From Vulcanimicrobiota bacterium (GTDB taxonomy: Bacteria > Vulcanimicrobiota > Vulcanimicrobiia > Vulcanimicrobiales > Vulcanimicrobiaceae), in NCBI GenBank assembly GCA_963837195.1, contig CAWIMO010000006.1, positions 526,798-590,797 on the forward strand: a stretch of 64,000 nt of DNA. Reading direction: 5' to 3'. Each line of letters opens with the position of its first letter. The stretch's first letter is position 1. This document shows positions 22,451 to 52,440 of this stretch, piece after piece. A program made the translations under genes and the position numbers. Below the pieces are notes generated by a model, which worked only from the letters and a program-made list of their open reading frames with translations, ran no database searches and was not told the origin of the DNA.

Positions 22451-22489
22451 GTTTGTCATCCCGAGCGTAGCGAAGCGTAGTCGAGGGAC
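22451..22489 (+). repeat. Dispersed repeat unit (canonical)
   Basis: gtttgtcatcccgagcgtagcgaagcgtagtcgagggac. Confidence 0.85.
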
Positions 22490-25527: not shown

Positions 25528-27806
25528 CTACGTTCCGGCTGCTGACCCCAAGCGAAAGACGTATTTGACGATGAGCCGGTTGAGCTGGACGTTGGCCGAC
25601 GGCGAACCGTAGTTGATGTAGATGTCGCCGTCGTTCGTGCGGGTGTGAAACCCGAAGGCGAGATTGTTGCCGGGCTCGGTGACGAAGCCGCCCAAGCCGT
25701 TGATGCCGCGCAAACCGATCGAGATATTCGTCGACGCGTTGATGTTGTAGCCGACCGACATGCGGCGCAGCCACTGGGAGGAAAGGATGCCGGTCATAAG
25801 ATTGCGTTCGTAGGTGCCATCGTACTCGAGACCGAGCGTGACTTTGCGGCCGATCGGGCGCGACGTGGTCGAGGTGTAATAGTGCACCCAGTTCCGCCGA
25901 GGCTGCCCCAGTTCGCGGCCACGTCGATCGGCGTCGGGCTGCCATCGCGATAGCCGATTGGGATGGCCATAAGGTTGTACGGCACATCGGTGCCCTGCAG
26001 GTAGCACGAAAATCCGGTGAACGATGACGTGCCGACGAACGGGTTGGCGCTCGAAAGCGCACAGTTCGTCGGGGTGTAGGGAATCGAATACTGGCGCAAC
26101 AGGCTGACCGTCGGGCCGATGCCGTCGAACGAGAAGAGGTTGTGAAAGACTGCGCTGAGATAGGCGCCGGTGTCGGCTTCGTGAATCGCGCCGCTTTGGT
26201 CGTGAAAGCGATCGCCGACAAAGAACAGGGTCCAACTCTTGACGCCCGGCGCTGTGCCGTTGAAGTCCATGAAACCTTCAGGCCGCGGATGTCGGAATTT
26301 TCGGTGTAGCCGTCGATCGATCGTAGTTCGGACTGATGTCGACGTAGCCGAGGTTGATTTCGTAGTTGTTCTGATGTTCGTCGATGAAGCCGTTGGCGGA
26401 ATGGGCGGTGCCTTGCGGCACCCACGAGCCGTGCTCGATCGCGTAGTTGAATTGGTAGACGATCTTGGTGTGCAGGTTGCGGCCCTTGAAGCCCGCTTCC
26501 ACCGTGTCGTCGTCGCCGTTGATGCTGTGGTGCGCGAACACGCCGTCCACGTAATACTGCAGCGCTTCATTTTGCGTCGCGTGCTTCCACCCAAAGGCCT
26601 GATCGTTGAACGTCTCACCCGTTTCCGCATTGTAACCTGAAATGTGAGCACGCCGAAGCTCTGCTGGCCATAGACGCCCTCGATCTTCGCGCCGCTGTCG
26701 AACGGTCCGACGCTGGGTGAATAGAATACTTCGTTCGGATAGCTGATGTAGTTCGAGTAGCCGTTGGGGTTGGGATCGAGATATTGCGCACCTTGCGCGA
26801 AGAACGGGCGGTACTCGATGAGCTGGCGTTGGAATTCTTGCGGCGCGATCGTCTGCTGATCGATCTCGACGTTGGAGAAGTCGGGATTGAGCGTGCCGAC
26901 CAGATTGATCGTCGATGTCACCGGCACGCTCACGTCGGCGCCGTAGTAGCGCGTTGGTTGCGGATAAAACGTGCCGTCGGCCTGTTCGTAATCGGAACGG
27001 TCCTCGCCGCTGCTCGAGAGCGCGTACACCTCGAGGCGTGGCTCCGGGCGCGCCGAGTTGCTTTTTGCCAGCGCGATGGTGACGCTGGGCCAAAAGCGCA
27101 GATCGTTGAACGACGGCCAGTTCCCCGCGCCGGCGTCGGGCATGAGCCCATCGAATGCCCACGTATAATGTTCGGCCGTCGCCGCGACGCCGCGAAAAAA
27201 CCCGATGCGCCACACGTTCGAACCGCCGTGGATGCGCATCGACGAGAGCGGGATGATCATAACGGCGCGCCACTCGCCGTCCACCACTTTGCCGGCCGCT
27301 TTCCAGTCGGGGCGATAGCGCACGTTTTCCGTCGCCTGCTGATAGCGCACGCCGCGCGGCGTCGTCTCGAACAGATACGCTTGCGACCCCGCGCCGCTGG
27401 TGTCGACGCCGACGGCCACGAAGTCGTCGGTGCCGAAGCCGACGTCGTTGGTCGTTTGGGTCGCGACGATCGGCGCTCTTTGCGGCGCGACGAACGCGAC
27501 GTAGAGATTCACGTCGTCGTATAAAAAGTAGGCGGTGGTGACGTCGGGGGCATTGCCGCGCGTGGTCACGTCCTTCCAGACGTCGCCATCGGGTACTTTG
27601 CCGAGTTGCCAGGCCGGGTCCGCCAGGCTCGGATCCAACGCCATGGGATGGGGCGCTCGCACGGCCGGAAACGAAAAGGCCGGCGTGACGGCCGCCTGCG
27701 CACGCGTGGAAAAACCCGCGAGTGCAAGGAGTGAACCACAGACTGCCAAGAGGAGCGCCCGCATTCTGGTCCGAGCATGGCCCCTAGTGAATGGATGCGT
27801 CCTCAA
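25528..27806 (-). pseudogene. Large secreted/outer-membrane-type protein (CBM9/DUF5916-like N-terminus, beta-rich C-terminus) broken by at least 4 frameshifts
   Basis: The protein-like reading jumps between four track ORFs: ...GVLTFQ | SGYNAETGETFNDQAFGWKH... | IDGYTENSDIRGLK | GFMDFNGTAPGVKSW... | NWVHYYTSTTSRPIG...KYVFRLGSAAGT*. The shifts are near 26640, 26320, 26280 and 25897. Confidence 0.75.
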
Positions 27807-27837
27807 TTGTGAATCAAAGATTTCTTTGAGCGCGCCC

Positions 27838-27906
27838 CTTTGTCATCCCGAGCGCAGCGCCCCTTGTCATCCGGAGCGTAGGCGCGCAGCGCCGTAGTCG
27901 AGGGAC
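27838..27906 (+). repeat. Two units of the dispersed repeat family
   Basis: ctttgtcatcccgagcgcagcgcc + ccttgtcatccggagcgtaggcgcgcagcgccgtagtcgagggac. Confidence 0.85.
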
Positions 27907-28002: not shown

Positions 28003-28473
28003 ATGCGGCAGATCACCAAATATATCATCGCGCTCACGATCGGCGGCGCCCTTACGGCAGCGGTCGCTATCGCCGGCGCAACGGGACCGACGCAGCAGAG
28101 TGCCCTCGCGGCAGATGAAAGCATCTCGCACGCGCTCCTCGCCAACGATACGAAGGCGTTACGCGGTCTTCTCGCCCCCGATTGGATCATCGTCTCCGCG
28201 AAAGGCGGCTACGACGGCCGCGACGACATTCTCAAAGCAATCGACGACGGCGTGTGGACGCACACGCAGGCGACGACGTCGAGTCCACGCGTGCGCATCT
28301 ACGGCACGACCGCGCTCGTGACCGAGCACGCAACCGTGAGCGGCATGTCGCACGGTAAGCCGTACACCAACATTCAGGAATGCCAAACCGACGTGCTGGT
28401 GTGGAAGGACGGCGCTTGGGTTTCGGAGCTCCTGCACGAGTCATACAGCACCCGCGAAAAGACGAACTGTTAG
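28003..28473 (+). CDS. Secreted SnoaL/DUF4440-like (NTF2 fold) protein
   Basis: Signal/TM at the N-terminus; LLANDTKALRGLLAPDWIIVSAKG...VLVWKDGAWV. Confidence 0.65.
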   Translation: MRQITKYIIALTIGGALTAAVAIAGATGPTQQSALAADESISHALLANDTKALRGLLAPDWIIVSAKGGYDGRDDILKAIDDGVWTHTQATTSSPRVRIYGTTALVTEHATVSGMSHGKPYTNIQECQTDVLVWKDGAWVSELLHESYSTREKTNC

Positions 28474-28477
28474 CGCA

Positions 28478-28546
28478 ATTTGTCATCCCGAGCGTAGCGC
28501 CGCTCGACTTTGTCATCCCGAGCGTAGCGAAGCGTAGTCGAGGGAC
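28478..28546 (+). repeat. Two units of the dispersed repeat family
   Basis: atttgtcatcccgagcgtagcgccgctcgac + tttgtcatcccgagcgtagcgaagcgtagtcgagggac. Confidence 0.85.
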
Positions 28547-28660
28547 AACAGTCGTCATACCGAAGTTGCGAGCGCGAAGCGCCTTCGACACCGGTGAGCC
28601 TTTTGGCACGGGTTGTGGGCTCCAGTAAACAACACTATGCTGGAGCGAGAGAACACTGCA

Positions 28661-29353
28661 ATGGACCTCATCATTTCGTGGCTGGGCGATCTTTGGGAAC
28701 AACTTGCGCGTCTCTTCACTTCGCCACCGGGTGACGGGCAGATGAAAGTTGCCGCTTTTGTGCGCTATAAGGGGGCAGATGGGCTTGGTCACGTCGGTTG
28801 GGGATTCGATTACGACGATGCTTACGTTAATGCTGGCTCGGTCGAGAACCCCCAAGGGGCGCCAACCAGTCCGCTAGCGGCAATGGGTTATTGGTGCGCT
28901 TTTCTTCCAAACCCAATTCCAACGATGCTTAGCAAGGAATACGACTCTCTCAAGTATCTCAACCTCAAGAACGCCTCCCCCATACGCGCTTATCGCGTCG
29001 CGAAATGGATCGGCACTCGGCCTTATGACGTTGTTGGGTGTAACTGCTTGAACGACACGTACGACGTTTTACGAGCATACGGATTTCCTGATCTCCAACC
29101 ACCCTCGGACGACCTCTTGCCCGACGTTTGGTTCGGTCTGCTCTCCGCGGCATTTGAGCAGATACAAGGATATACTTGGGCGCGCTCGGGTACTCCCAGC
29201 CTTCGTGAGCGTATCGGTCGCGCGATAGCAAAGGCTGCGCCCTTCCACGTTCCGACGTGGCGACGAGCTGGCAGTCCCGAAGCGCACGACCTGCAAGATC
29301 AGATCGCCGCAGACAAGCGCTCTAGGCATGCGGGCCCGGGCACACCACACTGA
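28661..29353 (+). CDS. Hypothetical protein with LRAT/permuted NlpC-P60-like His...Cys signature
   Basis: GLGHVGWGFDYDDAYVNAG, then ~85 aa later YDVVGCNCLNDTYDVLRAYG (compare the NCEHF motif of the LRAT/H-REV107 family). Start uncertain (28613, 28637 or 28661). Confidence 0.5.
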   Translation: MDLIISWLGDLWEQLARLFTSPPGDGQMKVAAFVRYKGADGLGHVGWGFDYDDAYVNAGSVENPQGAPTSPLAAMGYWCAFLPNPIPTMLSKEYDSLKYLNLKNASPIRAYRVAKWIGTRPYDVVGCNCLNDTYDVLRAYGFPDLQPPSDDLLPDVWFGLLSAAFEQIQGYTWARSGTPSLRERIGRAIAKAAPFHVPTWRRAGSPEAHDLQDQIAADKRSRHAGPGTPH

Positions 29354-29477
29354 GACTGGGCAACGCACGTTCACTGGAGCACCAGGCCAGCGTTCACCGC
29401 GTGACTTTTGGCCCATTGCACGACGCAAGCAAGCGTGAGAAAACTAAAGGCACGATCTAATCCAGGGGTGTGGGACG

Positions 29478-30536
29478 ATGATGATAACACGCTTTTTTCT
29501 TTGGGCGCTGTTCGGCTGTTCAGTCATGGTTGCGTGCGCTCCGAACGTCAATCTTTCCGCAGTACAACAGTATGCAACAATGGCGCAGCAGGCCCAGGCG
29601 TCGTTTGATGCGATTGCTGAGGATTATGACGCGAGCTGTGCCCGACAACGCGAGCTAAACCTTCGGATTGGCGATCTCGTCTGGATTCCGTACCCTGCTA
29701 CTCAGGCGCCACCAACGACCCCGGCCCCCGCGGGCGCTCGAGCCGGCAAGGCGAGCTCCGCGCCGTTTTTTGGCGACGCGTCCCAAGAACGCTGCGTCGT
29801 GACCGCTGACTACGCAGCTTATCCACTTGGCGAGGTCTCCCGCGAATGGCAAAAAGCCAACGACACGCTCCTGGCTTATATTCAATCGCTAGGCGCTCTC
29901 GCGGGAGCCGCGCCCACGCCAAGCCCAGCGATCCCAACATTCGTAGGGGCGGCCGCCGCCGCGAAACTCATACCGAATCCACAAGCGACCGCCATCACGC
30001 AGTTTGCAACAGCAATCTTCAACTATTGGCAAACATCGGAGCGCGAGCACGCCGTTGCGAAATTTCTCGATGAAACCAACTCCGTCGATCCGGCGACGCA
30101 ACAGAGCCCATTTTCCGAGGCTATTGAGGCCCTCACGGTTGCAGGCAGTGGCTACGAAATCGTCGTGTACAACGAGTGCACCGACGTCAATAATCTGTAT
30201 ATCGATGCCCTCACAAATCTCGGATCGATGTCCAGAAAAGGACGCGAGCAGTTCACGATCGAGCGCGCCTATCAGGTTCGCCAACGCTGGTCAGCAGATG
30301 CCTCGACTTGTAACACCCATTTTGCGGCCGCTCAGGCATATCTGACGACAATACAGAAGATATCGACGACTAATAGCGCGCTTTACAAAGCCATGAAGGA
30401 GCCCGCATCGTCTAAGGACGCGCTTGAACATGACATCTCGGACTTGAGCGGTACCATTTCAGCTCTCTACACGCTCGTAACGACGAAAGCGACGCCTTCG
30501 CCGAAACCCGCGCCCACCAAAACGAAATCGGGGTGA
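29478..30536 (+). CDS. Lipoprotein, function unknown
   Basis: Lipobox FGCSVMVAC; Pro/Ala-rich linkers; no known motif. Confidence 0.65.
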   Translation: MMITRFFLWALFGCSVMVACAPNVNLSAVQQYATMAQQAQASFDAIAEDYDASCARQRELNLRIGDLVWIPYPATQAPPTTPAPAGARAGKASSAPFFGDASQERCVVTADYAAYPLGEVSREWQKANDTLLAYIQSLGALAGAAPTPSPAIPTFVGAAAAAKLIPNPQATAITQFATAIFNYWQTSEREHAVAKFLDETNSVDPATQQSPFSEAIEALTVAGSGYEIVVYNECTDVNNLYIDALTNLGSMSRKGREQFTIERAYQVRQRWSADASTCNTHFAAAQAYLTTIQKISTTNSALYKAMKEPASSKDALEHDISDLSGTISALYTLVTTKATPSPKPAPTKTKSG

Positions 30537-30970
30537 GTAGTATGCCACAGATGACCGTCCTTGAAGCGCTAACGATATCGCACTGGTATGCGCTCTTCGG
30601 ACGCACTCTTTCCAACGCAGCTACGCTTCCGGGCCTAACACCCGCGCAAACGTATGCACTTACCGCCGCGTCGCGCGACTGCGCAAACCAGTCCAGCAAC
30701 CTCGCCACAAATCTCGTTCAAGTCGCGTTTCAGGACGCTGGCCAGGCATTTCAGGATATTTCGGACGCCACCAGCAAAGCCAATGATGTCGCCAAGCAAC
30801 TTGCTACTGACGCCGCTAACGTCGATAGTATTCTAAATATCGCGGCCAAGGTGGTTGGCCTCGGCGCGGCTGCGCTCACCGGCAACTATGGCGCAGCACT
30901 CAGCGACCTCATCGGACTCATTGGCCAACCGACCAAGGGCCAAGGCGCGCAAGACCCATTGGGATCGTAG
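30533..30970 (+). CDS. Hypothetical helical protein
   Basis: GTGA-type 4-nt overlap (30533-30536) with the upstream gene; Ala/Leu-rich predicted helices. Confidence 0.55.
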   Translation: MSSMPQMTVLEALTISHWYALFGRTLSNAATLPGLTPAQTYALTAASRDCANQSSNLATNLVQVAFQDAGQAFQDISDATSKANDVAKQLATDAANVDSILNIAAKVVGLGAAALTGNYGAALSDLIGLIGQPTKGQGAQDPLGS

Positions 30971-30980
30971 GGGCGACATC

Positions 30981-31937
30981 ATGCAGATGCAGATTGCAGC
31001 GACCATCGACGCACTTATCGTGCTCTTCTCGCTCTATCTCGGTCTAAGCCTGCTCGTGTCTCATTTCAATGAGCTGCTCGCGTCGATTGTCAAGCTCCGA
31101 GGAATGACCCTTTACGACGGAATTTTAAACCTTCTCTGCGGCGCCCGCGATTTCGCCGACGCGATCATGCTCCACCCTATGATCGCCAGCACGCAGCACG
31201 ATAAAACAGGCGTTATCGATCCAAACGAGTCGTATCGGCCCTCTTATATCGATCCGCGCAGCTTTTCAACGGCACTATGGCAATCATTGGCGGTTGCGAC
31301 GTACCAGCCAAACCGTCAGGTAGCGACTATCAGCTTTACCAACCCAGCGGCTGCACCGGCGACGTTCATTGCTACGCTTCGCACAAGCGTCGCGCGCGTA
31401 CCAAACGGGCAGCTACGTCTGCAACTGTATGCACTACTCGAAGCTTCTCAGGGCGACTACCAGAAGCTTCTCGCCGCTACCGACGACTGGTTCAACCGTC
31501 AGATGGATCGCGTCAGCGGCTGGTACCAGCGGCGCTCGCGCTTCATCGCCGGCGTGATGGCCCTAGTATTGGTCTCTTTCCTCGGCGTTGATACATTTCG
31601 CGTTGCCGACGCCGCGTACCGTCAGGTCCCGCCGAGTGCGATTACCGCCGTCACAAGCGCAGTATTGAATGCGCCTGTGCCATCACCAAGCGCCACGCCA
31701 TCTGCCGCACAGATGCAAGCGGTCGCACAACTCCTGACGAGCGATCAGTTGATGTCTGCGATCATCGATCCGTGGCCGCCAAAATGGCAACTACAGCACA
31801 TTGCCGGGTTGATTGTGACATTCCTGGCCGTTCTTTTAGGCGCTCCGTTCTGGTTCGATGCTCTCTCCAACATCTCCAACGTTCGTCTCAGTGGTCCAAA
31901 ACCTGATCAAGCGGCCACGCCTTCCACCAAACCATGA
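30981..31937 (+). CDS. Integral membrane protein, function unknown
   Basis: ATG 30981 follows the upstream stop. TM segments at IDALIVLFSLYLGLSLLV, FIAGVMALVLVSFLGV and IAGLIVTFLAVLLGAPFWFDAL. Confidence 0.65.
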   Translation: MQMQIAATIDALIVLFSLYLGLSLLVSHFNELLASIVKLRGMTLYDGILNLLCGARDFADAIMLHPMIASTQHDKTGVIDPNESYRPSYIDPRSFSTALWQSLAVATYQPNRQVATISFTNPAAAPATFIATLRTSVARVPNGQLRLQLYALLEASQGDYQKLLAATDDWFNRQMDRVSGWYQRRSRFIAGVMALVLVSFLGVDTFRVADAAYRQVPPSAITAVTSAVLNAPVPSPSATPSAAQMQAVAQLLTSDQLMSAIIDPWPPKWQLQHIAGLIVTFLAVLLGAPFWFDALSNISNVRLSGPKPDQAATPSTKP

Positions 31938-32578
31938 GCGACGATAAAGGGGCCATGCAAGCCCCGTGGAGCGGCGTGCTCTCGGGCGTTCGAGACGTCG
32001 CATTCGCTGCAGCGATCTACCTCTTCTTCTGTGGATATGTCTTTCGCTCAGAATACTATCGATCGTTCGGGCTGCCGTCCTCAGCTTCACTCGCGGATAG
32101 CGCGACATTTTTCGTCTACAGCTACAGGGTGTTTGCGGACGAGCCGTGGCTATGCTTGGGACTCGTTGTGGCGGCAGCCATTGCGTGGGCCTGCATTCGC
32201 AGAAGACTTAGCCAATACGCGCGATATGTAACGCTCGCGACTTGCGCCGTCTTTCTCTTTCCCGTGTTAGCCATAATCGCATCGCTGGCGGCCAATGGTG
32301 AGGCCGCACAATACAAAAACTGGAATTCTTCCGACGGTACGCTGACGTTAGGTATCAAGAAAAATGCCCACGACAGCTTCAACGGAACGTCCGGTCAAGT
32401 GTTCCTGAATGCCATTGACAACCACGAGATGCGGCTTTTCGCCATGACTGGAACCATGGCGTATATCACCGATCGCAAGTACACACCCGAAGGTGAGAAG
32501 GCAAACCTACTGGTCTACGTCGTTCCGCTCGACGAGGTCAGTCACATGGAGATTAATTTACCGGAGGTGAGCAAATGA
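31934..32578 (+). CDS. Membrane protein, function unknown
   Basis: ATGA overlap; 3-4 N-terminal TM segments and a soluble C-terminal domain. Confidence 0.6.
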   Translation: MSDDKGAMQAPWSGVLSGVRDVAFAAAIYLFFCGYVFRSEYYRSFGLPSSASLADSATFFVYSYRVFADEPWLCLGLVVAAAIAWACIRRRLSQYARYVTLATCAVFLFPVLAIIASLAANGEAAQYKNWNSSDGTLTLGIKKNAHDSFNGTSGQVFLNAIDNHEMRLFAMTGTMAYITDRKYTPEGEKANLLVYVVPLDEVSHMEINLPEVSK

Positions 32579-33024
32579 GAGCATTCGCAGTTCTTCCACT
32601 TCTCTTCGCCGCAGCCACCTGTTTGGGGCTCGCTGCCCAAACGGTTTGGACGCGCGATACAACGTCTGGCGCTACAGAATGGGGCAGCTACAACCGTAGC
32701 CTTGCGCTCTTCGTCCCATGCGGTAGCGACCGTGTTGAGCACGTCCAAAATGGCGATCGAATGACCGTACATCCCGGACCTTGCCCTAGCGGATTGGAGC
32801 CACCCACGGTTGACGACGCCCAAACGCTCTTTGCCAGCGCTTCAAGGATAATGCCAAACGAGAAAATCGACGCGAATCGATTCAAAGCGTTTCTTCGCAC
32901 GGAGTCAGGCGCCAATTTCGTCAACGCGCTTAGGGCTGGCAACACCAGTGCCGTAAAGACAATCTACGAATCTCACGCGAAGCCTGTTCCGGCTATCACT
33001 ATGCGCCCCAACGGCCGAACCTAG
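32575..33024 (+). CDS. Secreted hypothetical protein
   Basis: ATGA overlap; signal peptide MRAFAVLPLLFAAATCLGLAAQ. Confidence 0.6.
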   Translation: MRAFAVLPLLFAAATCLGLAAQTVWTRDTTSGATEWGSYNRSLALFVPCGSDRVEHVQNGDRMTVHPGPCPSGLEPPTVDDAQTLFASASRIMPNEKIDANRFKAFLRTESGANFVNALRAGNTSAVKTIYESHAKPVPAITMRPNGRT

Positions 33025-33388
33025 CGCTACGAACGCGCTTCAGGATGTAAGCGTTCCACGGTGGTGCTTGAACGACCAGAGGAATGCCGTCAGCATCGAT
33101 ATCCTCAAGCTCGTGGCGTTGGACGATTACGCGACAAGCGCAGAGATGGGTTGGATTCCTGCACGCGTTGCCGTGACCGGTTGTACGCACCCTCGGCTGC
33201 GTACCCGCGTTATAAAGAACGAAGATTTCTAGCCCGCATCGCGGCGGCTCAGCAGGATGTTGGCCTCAATGCTCACCTACGAATGACGGTAAGTGCCGCG
33301 GTTGTCGCAAATCGCTGCCATCTACCACTCGGCTGACGCGCAAAGCCGACGCCGCGGGTTTCAAACCGTTAACCCTCCGTAATGCCCC

Positions 33389-33418
33389 TTGACCAGCCGA
33401 CCCTACTGCTGCTAACCT
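33389..33418 (+). promoter_or_regulatory. Candidate promoter of the thr leader (TTGACC-18-TAACCT)
   Basis: cTTGACCagccgaccctactgctgcTAACCTggcggaaccATG; would give a near-leaderless leader ORF. Confidence 0.35.
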
Positions 33419-33427
33419 GGCGGAACC

Positions 33428-33505
33428 ATGATCTCGGCGTTCGTTTCGACGACCACGACGACCACCACCACCACGACCACTGTCGTTCGGTGCAGGTTGA
33501 CGTAG
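33428..33505 (+). CDS. thrL: Threonine-operon leader peptide (25 aa, 11 consecutive Thr codons)
   Basis: atg atc tcg gcg ttc gtt tcg (acg acc acg acg acc acc acc acc acg acc act) gtc gtt cgg tgc agg ttg acg tag = MISAFVSTTTTTTTTTTTVVRCRLT*. Too short for the ORF track. Confidence 0.75.
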   Translation: MISAFVSTTTTTTTTTTTVVRCRLT

Positions 33506-33534
33506 GCTAAAACACGAGATCAAGGACAGCTTAC

Positions 33535-33574
33535 GAAGCCCCGCACCGATTTGTGCGGGGCTTCTTGCATTTGT
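33535..33574 (+). terminator. Attenuator/intrinsic terminator between the thr leader and thrC
   Basis: GAAGCCCCGCAC-cgattt-GTGCGGGGCTTC followed by ttgcatttgt; lies 12 nt before the thrC ATG. Confidence 0.7.
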
Positions 33575-33585
33575 CAGGAGCCATC

Positions 33586-34692
33586 ATGCGCGTGGAATGT
33601 AGCGACTGCGGCGCGGTCGCCGACCCCCTCGAGATCTGCCGGTGCGGCGGGTTGCCCGAGTTCGTGCTCGAGCCGCTGCGCCTCGATCCGATCGGCCTGC
33701 GGCGCGTCGTGCGCGAGCGCCGCGCCAGCTACGAACCGCTCTTCGCCTCCGGCGTGTGGCGCTGGCGCGAACTGCTGCCGGCGATCCCCGCCGAGGCGAT
33801 CGTGTCGCTAGCCGAGGGCAACGTCCCGCTCTACACCTGCGACGCCGGTGCGCGGTATGCCGGCGTCGATCGCCTCGCGTACCTGCACCTGGGCATGAAT
33901 CCGACCGGCTCGTTCAAGGATCTCGGCATGACGGTTGCGATCTCGGCCGCCAAAGCCAGCGGTGCGCGCAGCGTGGTCTGCGCGAGCACCGGCAACACCG
34001 CCTCGTCGATGGCCGCCTATGCCGCGCGCGCCGGCCTCGCCGCGTATGCGATCGTCCCGCGCGGGCGCGTCAGCGACGCCAAGCTTGCGCAGATGCAAGA
34101 GTACGGCGCGCAGCTCATCGAAGTCGACGGCTCGTTCGACGACGCGTTCGCGTCACTAAAACAAGTGCGCGATGCAGCGGTCGTAAACTCGGTCAATGCC
34201 TATCGCATCGAAGGGCAGAAGTGTGCAGCCTTCGCGATCCTCGAAGCGCGCGGCTGGAGCGTGCCCGACTGGGTCGTGCTGCCGGGCGGCAACCTCGGCA
34301 ACATCTCGGCGATCAGCAAAGGCTTTCGCGAAGCGCTCGCGCTCGGACTCATCGACAAACTCCCACGCCTCGCGCTGGTGCGCGCCGAACGCGGCGTCGA
34401 CACGACGGCCAGCGCGATCGCCGTCGGCAATCCCCAGTCGCGCAATCGCGCCGACCGCGCACTCGAGCGTTTCAACGGCCTCGAACTGAGCGTTAGCGAT
34501 GATGCGATTCTCGATGCCAAAGCCCACATCGGTCGCGAAGGTATCGGGTGTGAACCGGCCTCGGCGGCATCGCTTGCCGGCGCGCGTGTCCTGCGCGAAT
34601 CCGGTGCGATCGCCGCCGATGCCGACGTCGTCGCGATTCTCACCGGCCACATCCTCAAAGACGCGCGCGTGAGCAGCTATGCTGTTGCGTGA
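33586..34692 (+). CDS. thrC: Threonine synthase
   Basis: AGGAG SD; N-terminal Cys-rich ribbon CSDCGA...CRCGG; PLP-lysine motif NPTGSFKDLGM; GNTASSMAAYAA. Confidence 0.9.
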   Translation: MRVECSDCGAVADPLEICRCGGLPEFVLEPLRLDPIGLRRVVRERRASYEPLFASGVWRWRELLPAIPAEAIVSLAEGNVPLYTCDAGARYAGVDRLAYLHLGMNPTGSFKDLGMTVAISAAKASGARSVVCASTGNTASSMAAYAARAGLAAYAIVPRGRVSDAKLAQMQEYGAQLIEVDGSFDDAFASLKQVRDAAVVNSVNAYRIEGQKCAAFAILEARGWSVPDWVVLPGGNLGNISAISKGFREALALGLIDKLPRLALVRAERGVDTTASAIAVGNPQSRNRADRALERFNGLELSVSDDAILDAKAHIGREGIGCEPASAASLAGARVLRESGAIAADADVVAILTGHILKDARVSSYAVA

Positions 34693-51341: not shown

Positions 51342-52421
51342 GTGGGCCTGGTCGCTTTTCTTCCGCAATTGCTGCTGGCGGTGCCGGCCGGCTTAATGGC
51401 CGATCGCCTCGACCGGCGCGCGGTCGTCATCGTCACCGGCATCGGCGCATTGATCGGCTCGCTGCTTTTCATCCTGCTCGCAGTGCAGCACTCACAATCG
51501 ATCGCCGCCTATTTTGGCGCGCTCCTCTTGTATTCAACGGCCGACGCGCTCGGAGTTCCCGCAACCCGTGCGATGCTGCCGTCGCTGGTGAGCGGCGAGC
51601 GCTACATGCGCGCCACCGCCTTGATCTCGTCGGTCTCGCAATTCGGCACGATCGCGGGGCCCGCGGTCGCGGGCATACTGATCGCGTTCTCGGCCGCGTC
51701 CGCATTTGTGGTAGCGGCCTTGCTGCAACTCGTTGCCATCGTGGCCTTCTTCTTTCTCGATCCGCGCGGGCCGACGCGAGCGCATGAAGAGTCGCTGTGG
51801 CAATCGGCGCTCGGCGGGTTTCGCTTCATCGTCGATCGCAAGATCATTCTCGGCGCGATCTCACTCGATCTCTTTGCCGTGCTCTTCGGCGGCGCAACCG
51901 CGCTCCTCCCGATCTATGCGACGCAGATCCTCCACGTCGGCGCAACCGGCTACGGCATGCTGCGCGCTGCGCCTGCGGTCGGCGCGGCCCTCGTCGGCCT
52001 CTGGCTGATTCGTCATCCCATCGCGCGCAACGGCGGTCGTTGGCTCTTCTGGTGCATCGCGGGATTTGGCGTTGCGACGATCGTCTTCGGACTCTCGCAT
52101 AACATGCCGCTCTCGCTCGTCGCACTCGCGGGAACCGGCGGCTTCGATATGGTCAGCGTGGTGATTCGCAACGCGCTTACCCAGCTCGGTGTCCCCGAAC
52201 TGATGCGCGGCCGCGTCAGCGCCTTCGAAAACATCTTTATCGGCGCATCGAACCAACTCGGCACGTTTGAATCCGGCGTCGTCGCACAGTGGCTTGGGCC
52301 GGTCGCGTCGGTCGTGCTCGGCGGCTGCGCCACGATCGTGGTGGTCGCGCTCTGGGTGGGAATCTTCCCCGCACTGCGCCACTTCGACCACGTAGACGAC
52401 ACCTTGTCATCCCGAGCGTAG
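51342..52421 (+). CDS. MFS transporter (start unresolved; homologous reading frame is open from 51228)
   Basis: LPQLLLAVPAGLMADRLDRR is typical of MFS. The in-frame upstream FRAYFLARQSGWFAEGIANTAIAWQIY looks like TM1 but has no ATG/GTG/TTG. The last codons and the TAG lie in a repeat unit. Confidence 0.7.
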   Translation: MGLVAFLPQLLLAVPAGLMADRLDRRAVVIVTGIGALIGSLLFILLAVQHSQSIAAYFGALLLYSTADALGVPATRAMLPSLVSGERYMRATALISSVSQFGTIAGPAVAGILIAFSAASAFVVAALLQLVAIVAFFFLDPRGPTRAHEESLWQSALGGFRFIVDRKIILGAISLDLFAVLFGGATALLPIYATQILHVGATGYGMLRAAPAVGAALVGLWLIRHPIARNGGRWLFWCIAGFGVATIVFGLSHNMPLSLVALAGTGGFDMVSVVIRNALTQLGVPELMRGRVSAFENIFIGASNQLGTFESGVVAQWLGPVASVVLGGCATIVVVALWVGIFPALRHFDHVDDTLSSRA

Positions 52422-52440
52422 CGAAGCGTAGTCGAGGGAC
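52401..52440 (+). repeat. Dispersed repeat unit overlapping the MFS 3' end
   Basis: accttgtcatcccgagcgtagcgaagcgtagtcgagggac. Confidence 0.85.

Follow-up and report, generated by a model that had tools for sequence, protein, structure and literature searches.

A low-GC six-gene block in a Vulcanimicrobiota genome: a conserved g2-g3-g4 core, a plausible Cys/His hydrolase and a possible membrane-gated hydrolase module

Background

How large or signal-less hydrolases and toxins leave bacteria that have no classical secretion system is an open question, and the known answers, the type 10 secretion systems (T10SS), all derive from phage lysis cassettes. Spanins include an outer-membrane lipoprotein. 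T10SS cassettes combine a holin, an endolysin and a spanin (PMC10847048). Holin-endolysin-spanin cassettes and T10SS, as found in Serratia (ChiWXYZ), Yersinia entomophaga and Salmonella (PMC10847048, PMC13284979), are the closest known systems to the block of six genes that we describe here. The genes, which we call g1 to g6, lie in a 64,000-nucleotide stretch of a Vulcanimicrobiota genome (contig CAWIMO010000006.1, positions 526,798 to 590,797), hereafter "the window". All positions refer to it unless a related locus, designated by an L number, is named.

The block shares with these cassettes a gene for a signal-less, putatively wall-active enzyme that stands beside genes for membrane proteins and a lipoprotein, and an operon-like arrangement with tight spacing. 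With a system of this kind, a hydrolase made in the cytoplasm would have a route to the envelope in a diderm, as the Eremiobacterota have been inferred to be (PMC6664022). We propose, at a probability of roughly 40%, that the block is a membrane-gated module that deploys a hydrolase and works like a holin-endolysin-spanin cassette or a T10SS, without detectable homology to either. The g1 product, a putative hydrolase, would be synthesised in the cytoplasm without a signal peptide, and a protein of the g4 family would serve as its membrane partner, either giving it access to the envelope, or activity there, or timing its action. In Eremiobacterota, g2 and g3, together with g5, would extend the function of g4 across the diderm envelope as spanning or regulatory parts, and the outcome might be local wall remodelling, protein release or lysis. 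What g2, g3, g5 and g6 do, which substrate the g1 enzyme has and whether g4 serves in gating or export are inferences.

Results and discussion

Genes and composition of the block

Six co-directional open reading frames (ORFs) on the forward strand fill the interval from 28.6 to 33.0 kb (Table 1), in agreement with the preliminary description of the window, which a model had made from the sequence alone. Their starts were checked against public gene calls and homologues. Of the three four-nucleotide overlaps that had been described, the ATGA overlaps at the g4/g5 and g5/g6 junctions are certain. An overlap at g2/g3 would require a GTG start at 30533, which is backed by neither the public gene call for g3 (30551, 139 amino acids) nor the closest homologue, which starts at the equivalent of the ATG at 30542. 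The gap between g2 and g3 is therefore likely to be 5-14 nucleotides. A Logan contig from an independent sequencing run (ERR10755945, 3662 nucleotides, L001) encodes g2 (partial), g3, g4, g5 and g6 products identical to those of the window, and the organism, or at least the block, has therefore been sampled more than once.

The six proteins had been described as unassignable, and no curated library recognises any of them: scans of all six against Pfam, NCBIfam, PADLOC and PHROGs gave no meaningful match. Likewise, none of the six matched the Protein Data Bank (PDB), where a sequence search with g1 and profile searches with g1, g2 and g4 returned chance-level hits only.

The block (28600-33030) has a GC content of 56.65%, compared with 62.7% for the whole window and a mean of 63.0% (standard deviation 0.98, minimum 60.7%) for the other 4.4-kb windows within it. 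No other stretch of the window is as low in GC, and none deviates as strongly in its tetranucleotides. The low GC content noted earlier is thus real, but the contrast with the rest is about 6 points and not the 50-56% against 65-70% that had been estimated by eye. GC content at third codon positions is 58-65% in all six genes, versus 80-86% in the DUF4440 gene, thrC and thrB, which lie in the flanks. The compositional anomaly is genuine and extends over all six genes, and the block is compositionally foreign, an operon that was probably gained by horizontal transfer.

A conserved core in related loci

The preliminary description had treated the six genes as one candidate system, with an enzyme-like head gene followed by envelope partners, and had named co-occurrence of the six families elsewhere as a check. 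They do not co-occur: all six together were found in no other locus, most g4 genes occur without g2 and g3 (of 80 g4 genome loci that were fetched, about 75 have none of g2, g3 and g5), and g6 is an orphan. What recurs is a smaller unit. Ten related loci extend far enough to show what follows g2, a sample that stays small (a g2 profile scan of metagenomes yielded 5 loci). In every one of them g2 is followed by g3 or, in L018, by g3b, a distant g3 paralogue that is also present in L095. A g4-family gene comes after g2-g3 in L006/L012 (Candidatus Cybelea), L018, L045, L091, L094, L095, L102 and L104, so that g2, g3 and g4 are found in 8 related loci, if g3b is accepted in the g3 position of L018. 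Two of these 8 loci also carry g5 (three with the window) and one carries g1 (two with the window). The g4 copies of L091 and L094 are only distantly related to that of the window, and the association therefore spans g4 subtypes. The adjacency of g2 and g3, with g4 next in most loci, persists at 22-76% identity and with different g4 subtypes. The conserved core is g2-g3-g4, and g1 and g5 are accessory.

Two observations on the gene beside the core bear on what it does. First, the position of g1 is taken elsewhere by other envelope-active genes next to g2-g3-g4 (Table 1). In related loci g2-g3-g4 adjoin genes for different hydrolases or for proteins that bind peptidoglycan, which reinforces the idea of an enzyme with envelope partners; this and the plausible hydrolase g1 are among the parts of the preliminary description that survive. 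Second, the gene order in L095/L096 is g2-g3-g1-g3b-g4, which places g1 inside the core. The return of g1 to the core in a changed order favours functional linkage over inherited synteny.

These data also bear on the possibility that the block has no common function at all, being a set of unrelated orphan genes on a low-GC island whose adjacency reflects co-transfer only. The adjacency of g2 and g3 in every informative locus, with g4 next in most, is difficult to reconcile with such an accident, as are the reappearance of g1 beside the core in rearranged order, the tight spacing and the ATGA overlaps. That the six families are never together elsewhere, that g6 is an orphan, that g1 stands alone elsewhere and that nothing links the proteins biochemically are all as co-transfer would predict, but on balance we consider this explanation distinctly unlikely.

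A gene for a FAD-dependent oxidoreductase adjoins g2 in two loci (Table 1). Its stop codon overlaps the g2 start in L091, and it is divergently oriented in L104; it is a candidate for a further partner that recurs with g2-g3-g4. In L092 (JGI contig 3300055138, 1-17185) a PLC-like (phospholipase C-like) gene is followed by g2-g3 in a region that looks mobile, with an RHS-repeat protein, a relaxase/NikA pair, a transposase fragment and a 50-amino-acid remnant of a g4 gene. This suggests that the module was rearranged on a mobile element.

The g4 family and its neighbours

As described earlier, g4 has three hydrophobic segments, at residues 2-30, 185-210 and 269-296, and ends in GAPFWFDAL...RLSGPKP. 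The distribution of charges puts residues 31-185, a helical region of about 155 amino acids, and the C-terminal tail in the cytoplasm, suggesting an inner-membrane protein with an N-out/C-in topology. The motifs HPL, RPSY, WFNxQMDRVSGWYKR and LGAPFWFDxL..N.R..G.KP are strongly conserved. The family is very large and uncharacterised, with at least 957 clusters at 90% identity (among 8000 candidates scored) and at least 569 loci among GTDB species representatives. Its carriers belong to the Eremiobacterota, Acidobacteriota, Verrucomicrobiota, Actinomycetota/Thermoleophilia, Chloroflexota, Bacillota, Nitrospirota and Desulfobacterota, as well as to the Alpha-, Beta- and Gammaproteobacteria, and include the cultured Sphingomonas chungangi and Nitrosomonas sp. 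Nm51. The structure model of g4 is confident (predicted local distance difference test score, pLDDT, 84; predicted template-modelling score, pTM, 0.76). A Foldseek search with it found no fold match in the PDB (best expect value, E, 1.8), and the g4 profile found nothing among PDB sequences.

Each of the 59 co-directional ORFs located at most about 150 nucleotides from a g4-family gene was scanned against Pfam, and 101 genes located 5 kb away in the same loci served as a control. Degradative enzymes account for about 14 of the 59 neighbours, in a comparison that is informal in that ORF selection was crude, singleton families in the control were hidden and some loci are related. The families matched by two or more of the 59 neighbours are headed by degradative ones, namely Peptidase_C1 (three), Amidase_2, patatin, PLC and Pro-kumamolisin/S8 (sedolisin) (two each). 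Single neighbours include a Tle1-like phospholipase with a gap of 0 nucleotides to g4 (L082), a GH19-like gene that overlaps g4 by 4 nucleotides on a genome contig of S. chungangi (L059), and a CHAP/SleB-like protein (L076). Among the 101 control genes none of these families was matched twice or more, and no control gene matched the hydrolase seeds.

Annotated plasmids from cultured bacteria provide further cases. A 621-amino-acid CHAP+SleB "cell wall hydrolase" precedes g4 and then a metallophosphoesterase on the Rhizobium phaseoli plasmid pRphaN831c. On a Hymenobacter canadensis plasmid g4 is followed, after a 2-nucleotide gap, by an N-acetylmuramoyl-L-alanine amidase and then an S8 peptidase, and on a Caballeronia plasmid, with the same gap, by an N-acetylmuramoyl-L-alanine amidase and then a peptidoglycan-binding protein. 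By inspection, the hydrolases linked to g4 have no signal peptide, and several open directly with the catalytic domain. Pairs of g4 and a muralytic enzyme in other phyla recall the pair of holin and endolysin. An all-against-all clustering of the g4 neighbours revealed no single conserved partner family, which rules out a fixed multi-gene system around g4.

A conserved membrane partner with a variable degradative effector, patchy in distribution and partly plasmid-borne, is also the pattern of two-gene antiphage systems of the PADLOC collection. The block might accordingly be read as a conflict or defence (abortive infection) module, in which g4 would act as a membrane sensor or co-effector that, when a phage or another insult strikes, unleashes the neighbouring cytoplasmic hydrolase (g1 in the window) to kill or lyse the cell, with g2 and g3 as lineage-specific accessories. 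A swappable effector beside a conserved partner is typical of defence systems, and patatin, Tle1-like lipases and proteases are among the partners. In addition, STAND/guanylate-cyclase proteins (L091, Caballeronia), an RHS protein with a relaxase (L092), a VapC/PrlF pair (Paracoccus) and sheath genes of an extracellular contractile injection system (eCIS; L006) lie nearby, some copies are on plasmids, and the composition of the block is foreign and low in GC. Against these points, the six proteins gave 0 matches to 5027 PADLOC models (PADLOC-DB 2.0, E up to 1), so that the defence module considered in the preliminary description corresponds to no known family there. Many partners are muralytic (Amidase_2, CHAP/SleB, GH19), and an extracytoplasmic substrate is unusual for abortive-infection effectors. 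Many g4 genes also stand among housekeeping genes, and the flanks of the block in the window, a threonine/methionine (thr/met) operon and a DUF4440 gene, are ordinary. We regard a defence role as unlikely.

The same enzymes suggest competition between bacteria as another reading, in which g1 or its substitute would be a secreted antibacterial effector and an envelope protein, for example g2 or g4, would confer immunity. Pairs associated with type VI secretion systems (T6SS), such as Tle/Tli and Tae/Tai, likewise consist of signal-less lipases or amidases beside envelope proteins that include lipoproteins. Lipoprotein immunity proteins (Tli/Tai) exist for T6SS effectors that act in the periplasm. 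The Tle1-like, patatin, amidase and papain-like partners are classic types of antibacterial effector and have no signal peptides, a Tle1-like catalytic domain is coupled directly to the g4 gene in L082, and there are an RHS protein near the L092 module and an eCIS near L006. However, immunity proteins are specific to their toxins, whereas g4 (or g2-g3) is one conserved partner that accompanies many enzymes with neither fold nor substrate in common. Most of g4 is predicted to lie in the cytoplasm, which is the wrong compartment for protection against wall or lipid effectors and a topology unsuited to periplasmic immunity. Those parts of the window that were inspected showed no secretion-system genes, T6SS genes among them, and no PAAR or VgrG genes. 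An immunity role is, in our estimation, improbable.

The breadth of the family invites a more prosaic explanation, namely that g4 has a housekeeping-like role in general envelope homeostasis (for example lipid or wall maintenance) and simply tends to lie near genes for envelope enzymes. The partners g2, g3 and g5 would then be specific to the clade, and g1 would be a common enzyme of the autolysin type. A very large multi-phylum family that is often present as a single gene among core genes, with MurJ, LpxC and MreB nearby, would fit, and the locus in the window has no mobile-element signature (neither a tRNA gene nor an integrase turned up, and its repeats are of the REP-like kind). The strongly atypical composition of the block does not fit, nor do copies on plasmids and in mobile regions, a highly variable gene context and partners that include effector-type lipases and proteases without signal peptides. 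We therefore hold it to be improbable.

Two kinds of gene recur around g4-family genes apart from the hydrolases (Table 1). LuxR/GerE-type regulators, mostly of about 500 amino acids, recur in loci that are not related to each other, at most a few kb from the g4-family gene, and could be dedicated regulators. A secreted family of about 310 amino acids, which has no Pfam match, lies 11-12 nucleotides 3' of g4 in several Acidobacteriota and overlaps the end of g4 in L032; it is also found 3 kb from the core in the Cybelea locus (L012).

The g1 protein

The LRAT, YaeF and PPPDE families have a circularly permuted papain-like order and belong to the NlpC/P60 superfamily. The preliminary description had seen an LRAT-like His...Cys signature in g1. 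Of that claim the two residues stand: in 40 diverged members the only invariant polar residues are the His of a GH motif and the Cys of an NC motif, which are His44 and Cys129 of g1. In an AlphaFold (AF2) model of g1 (pLDDT 85), a strand at 44-50 begins at the His and a helix at 129-140 begins at the Cys. The His precedes the Cys in the sequence, and the topology in the model is of the permuted papain-like type, to which g1 adds a helical region at the C-terminus and an amphipathic helix at the N-terminus. The permuted NlpC/P60 hydrolases (LRAT/PLAAT with H-box and NC, YaeF, PPPDE/DeSI) thus share with g1 the "GH ... NC" order, the His on a strand and the Cys where a helix begins, but g1 differs from them in its extra terminal helical parts, in having no profile match and in Foldseek E values of about 0.1 or higher.

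The searches did not establish g1 as an LRAT-family member. The Pfam families LRAT, NLPC_P60 and Peptidase_C97 had no match among 15 close and 40 distant g1 members, and an hhalign comparison of the g1 profile with a PLAAT3 sequence entered by hand gave nothing. The best Foldseek E values for the g1 model were 0.67 in the PDB and 0.098 in BFVD, neither of them significant; superfamily members (Aichivirus 2A, with a template-modelling score TMt of 0.44, CLN5 and a PPPDE protein) occurred in the non-significant tail only, as did a picornavirus polyprotein. Structure models had been proposed earlier as a check for well-known families among all six proteins. For g1 and g4, the proteins modelled, no significant match, housekeeping or otherwise, was found in the PDB or, for g1, in BFVD.

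A profile search of 1.84 billion representatives found 492 proteins with a g1 domain; by word-indexed search the family is small (15 clusters). One member, P0149, has a C-terminal GH25 muramidase and no signal peptide, and in this it resembles endolysins; such a fusion is the customary design of muralytic enzymes. An N-terminal DUF308 membrane domain is present in 12 of 40 members, and other fusions join the domain to beta/gamma-crystallin domains or to FG-GAP repeats with a signal peptide. The g1 protein of the window has no hydrophobic segment, hence no hydrophobic N-terminus, and by inspection is made in the cytoplasm without a signal peptide. Judged by its conserved residues and its model, g1 is a plausible Cys/His hydrolase of the permuted papain-like type. 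It most likely acts on the envelope, with peptidoglycan, or the cell wall, as the candidate target.

The remaining proteins

The identification of g2 as a lipoprotein was confirmed. Its hydrophobic N-terminus ends in a lipobox (...VAC) in which Ala19 and Cys20 are invariant in 13 homologues, and the protein beyond Cys20 is predicted to lie outside the cytoplasm. In a diderm g2 is probably anchored facing the periplasm. Its family is small by word-indexed search (9 clusters). The g3 protein has one conserved hydrophobic segment near its C-terminus, rich in small residues (FGAA..TGNYGAA..L), which we propose may form a membrane hairpin or anchor. The g5 protein had been described as having four transmembrane (TM) segments and a soluble tail; the tail, of about 90 amino acids, is present, and the hydrophobic segments number three or four. 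It occurs in three distinct Eremiobacterota loci, namely the window, L006/L012 and L045. The g6 protein, described as secreted, does have a signal-like segment at its N-terminus, but it has no homologue in any fetched locus, and a single one of the public assemblies has it as a gene call, which makes it the least certain of the six genes.

A spanin pair joins an outer-membrane lipoprotein to an inner-membrane protein. Set beside it, g2 has an invariant lipobox Cys and g3 a single C-terminal hydrophobic segment, and the sizes and sequences of the two are unlike those of known spanins. The membrane-associated proteins g3, g4 and g5 matched no PHROG with a known function and no holin family of Pfam at a significant level.

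Weighing the proposed mechanism

The reading of the block as a membrane-gated hydrolase module has to be set against several observations that count against it. None of the six proteins matches holins, endolysins or spanins in PHROGs or Pfam, and neither g1 nor g4 has a fold match in the PDB; for g1 no significant Foldseek match of any kind was obtained. Typical holins are far smaller than g4, which has about 300 amino acids, some 155 of them in a cytoplasmic domain, and o-spanins are far smaller than g2 (352 amino acids). The partner enzymes of the g4 family, unlike those of lysis cassettes, include lipases and proteases. No homologue of g4 was present among 50,697 phage records. Some g1-domain proteins have a signal peptide or membrane anchor of their own, and g1 is found without the core in L002-L005, where it lies within a riboflavin operon, and in L097, where it follows a gene for a glycosyltransferase. 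Many g4 genes adjoin ordinary genes, such as those for SHMT, LpxC, MurJ and a response regulator, and g4 may therefore have a more general membrane role. The informal character of the neighbour comparison belongs in the same list.

A broader and more specific formulation of the membrane-gated reading is doubtful as a whole. It holds that the g4 family is a new class of membrane partner, or a non-phage release device, for signal-less hydrolases (muralytic enzymes, lipases and proteases), that it is unrelated to known holins and is extended by g2 and g3 in Eremiobacterota, and that g1 is a new permuted papain-like wall hydrolase among its clients. For the g4 family taken by itself, the chance that it forms a separate new class is substantial. 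Searches of the literature turned up no mention of the g4 motif, and the g2-g3-g4 core, the "GH...NC" domain of g1 and, above all, the link between the g4 family and signal-less hydrolases appear to be undescribed so far.

If the coupling is functional, the g4 family would represent a second, independent solution for hydrolase release; alternatively, it might act as a switch of a new kind in defence or lysis. Cultured hosts (Sphingomonas chungangi, Rhizobium phaseoli, Caballeronia and Hymenobacter) carry g4 and a hydrolase as a minimal pair, which makes the hypothesis directly testable. Such work would also give the first functional handle on the "GH...NC" domain, with its 492 representatives, and on the g2-g3 pair.

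Table 1. Features of the block and of related loci. Positions in the window are counted from its first nucleotide; those in other loci refer to the locus named.
Feature	Locus	Position	Strand	Description
g1	window	28661-29353	+	230 aa; ATG start; public gene call also 230 aa
g2	window	29478-30536	+	352-aa lipoprotein; first gene of conserved core
g3	window	30542-30970	+	about 142 aa, helical; second core gene
g4	window	30981-31937	+	318 aa, 3-TM protein
g5	window	31934-32578	+	214-aa membrane protein; accessory member
g6	window	32575-33024	+	149-aa ORF; signal-peptide-like N-terminus; least certain gene
REP-like element, two copies	window	28471-28546 (pair quoted earlier as 28478-28546)	+	intergenic, left of g1; GTCATCCCGAGCGTAGCG ... 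CGTAGTCGAGGGAC
Non-coding spacer	window	33025-33427		58.8% GC, between g6 and thr leader
Core-adjacent gene	window, L095			g1
Core-adjacent gene	L104 (closest relative, 70-76% identity for g2-g4)			protein with two PG_binding_1 domains
Core-adjacent gene	L018			papain C1 peptidase
Core-adjacent gene	L094			patatin
Core-adjacent gene	L092			PLC-like phosphoesterase
Core-adjacent gene	L093			alpha/beta-hydrolase-like gene
Core-adjacent gene	L091	6217-8001		FAD-dependent oxidoreductase (PF12831); 52% identical to the L104 copy
Core-adjacent gene	L104	1-783		FAD-dependent oxidoreductase (PF12831); 52% identical to the L091 copy
LuxR/GerE-type regulator	L009	3172-4677
LuxR/GerE-type regulator	L092	10264-11862
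LuxR/GerE-type regulator	L045	2849-4396
LuxR/GerE-type regulator	L109	871-1884
Secreted ~310-aa family	L038	8989-9960
Secreted ~310-aa family	L042	3783-4736
Secreted ~310-aa family	L048
Secreted ~310-aa family	L089
Secreted ~310-aa family	L032
Secreted ~310-aa family	L012	4969-5904

Flanks and minor observations

The flanks of the block are ordinary, with a thr/met biosynthesis operon and its Thr-rich leader on the right and the DUF4440 gene and repetitive extragenic palindromic (REP)-like elements on the left. The repeat pair that had been described at the left border is real, but it does not mark a border. The REP-like element GTCATCCCGAGCGYAGCG is present in 16 copies in the window, versus 0.4 expected, all on the forward strand and often as tandem pairs in intergenic DNA (e.g. 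990-1007, 22455-22472, 27842-27859, 28482-28529 and 52406-52423); besides the pair, two copies lie beyond the DUF4440 gene, and there are copies at 27831-27883. The family is dispersed and not specific to the block, and the pair was rejected as an island border. No tRNA gene and no integrase were seen at the locus in the window, and no Rfam family was matched there. An island flanked by attachment (att) sites was rejected as well, there being no tRNA or Rfam element and the left repeats being dispersed without a partner at the right end. The HNH-like scrap reported at the right border fared no better: the translated scrap in the spacer has no Pfam or PHROG match, and an HNH endonuclease remnant was rejected.

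Among the loci in which g1 is solitary, genes of 318 and 332 amino acids near g1 in L002 were considered as g4 and g2 and rejected, as neither is.

To the right of the spacer, a thr-operon leader occupies 33428-33564 on the forward strand. Its ORF (33428-33505) encodes MISAFVSTTTTTTTTTTTVVRCRLT, with 11 consecutive Thr codons, and a terminator with a 12-bp stem (33535-33564) overlaps the first bases of thrC (33553-34692); no Rfam family matched the leader region. Downstream of thrC are thrB, hom, a metY-like gene and a metX-like gene.

To the left of the block, the gene at 25794-27806 on the reverse strand looks frameshifted. The first half of its 670-amino-acid ORF resembles a secreted DUF5916-like protein (a weak match) and the second half is low-complexity junk, while an overlapping ORF in another frame (26278-27273) is a plausible continuation. 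GC content dips locally at 26-27 kb, around this putative frameshifted gene.

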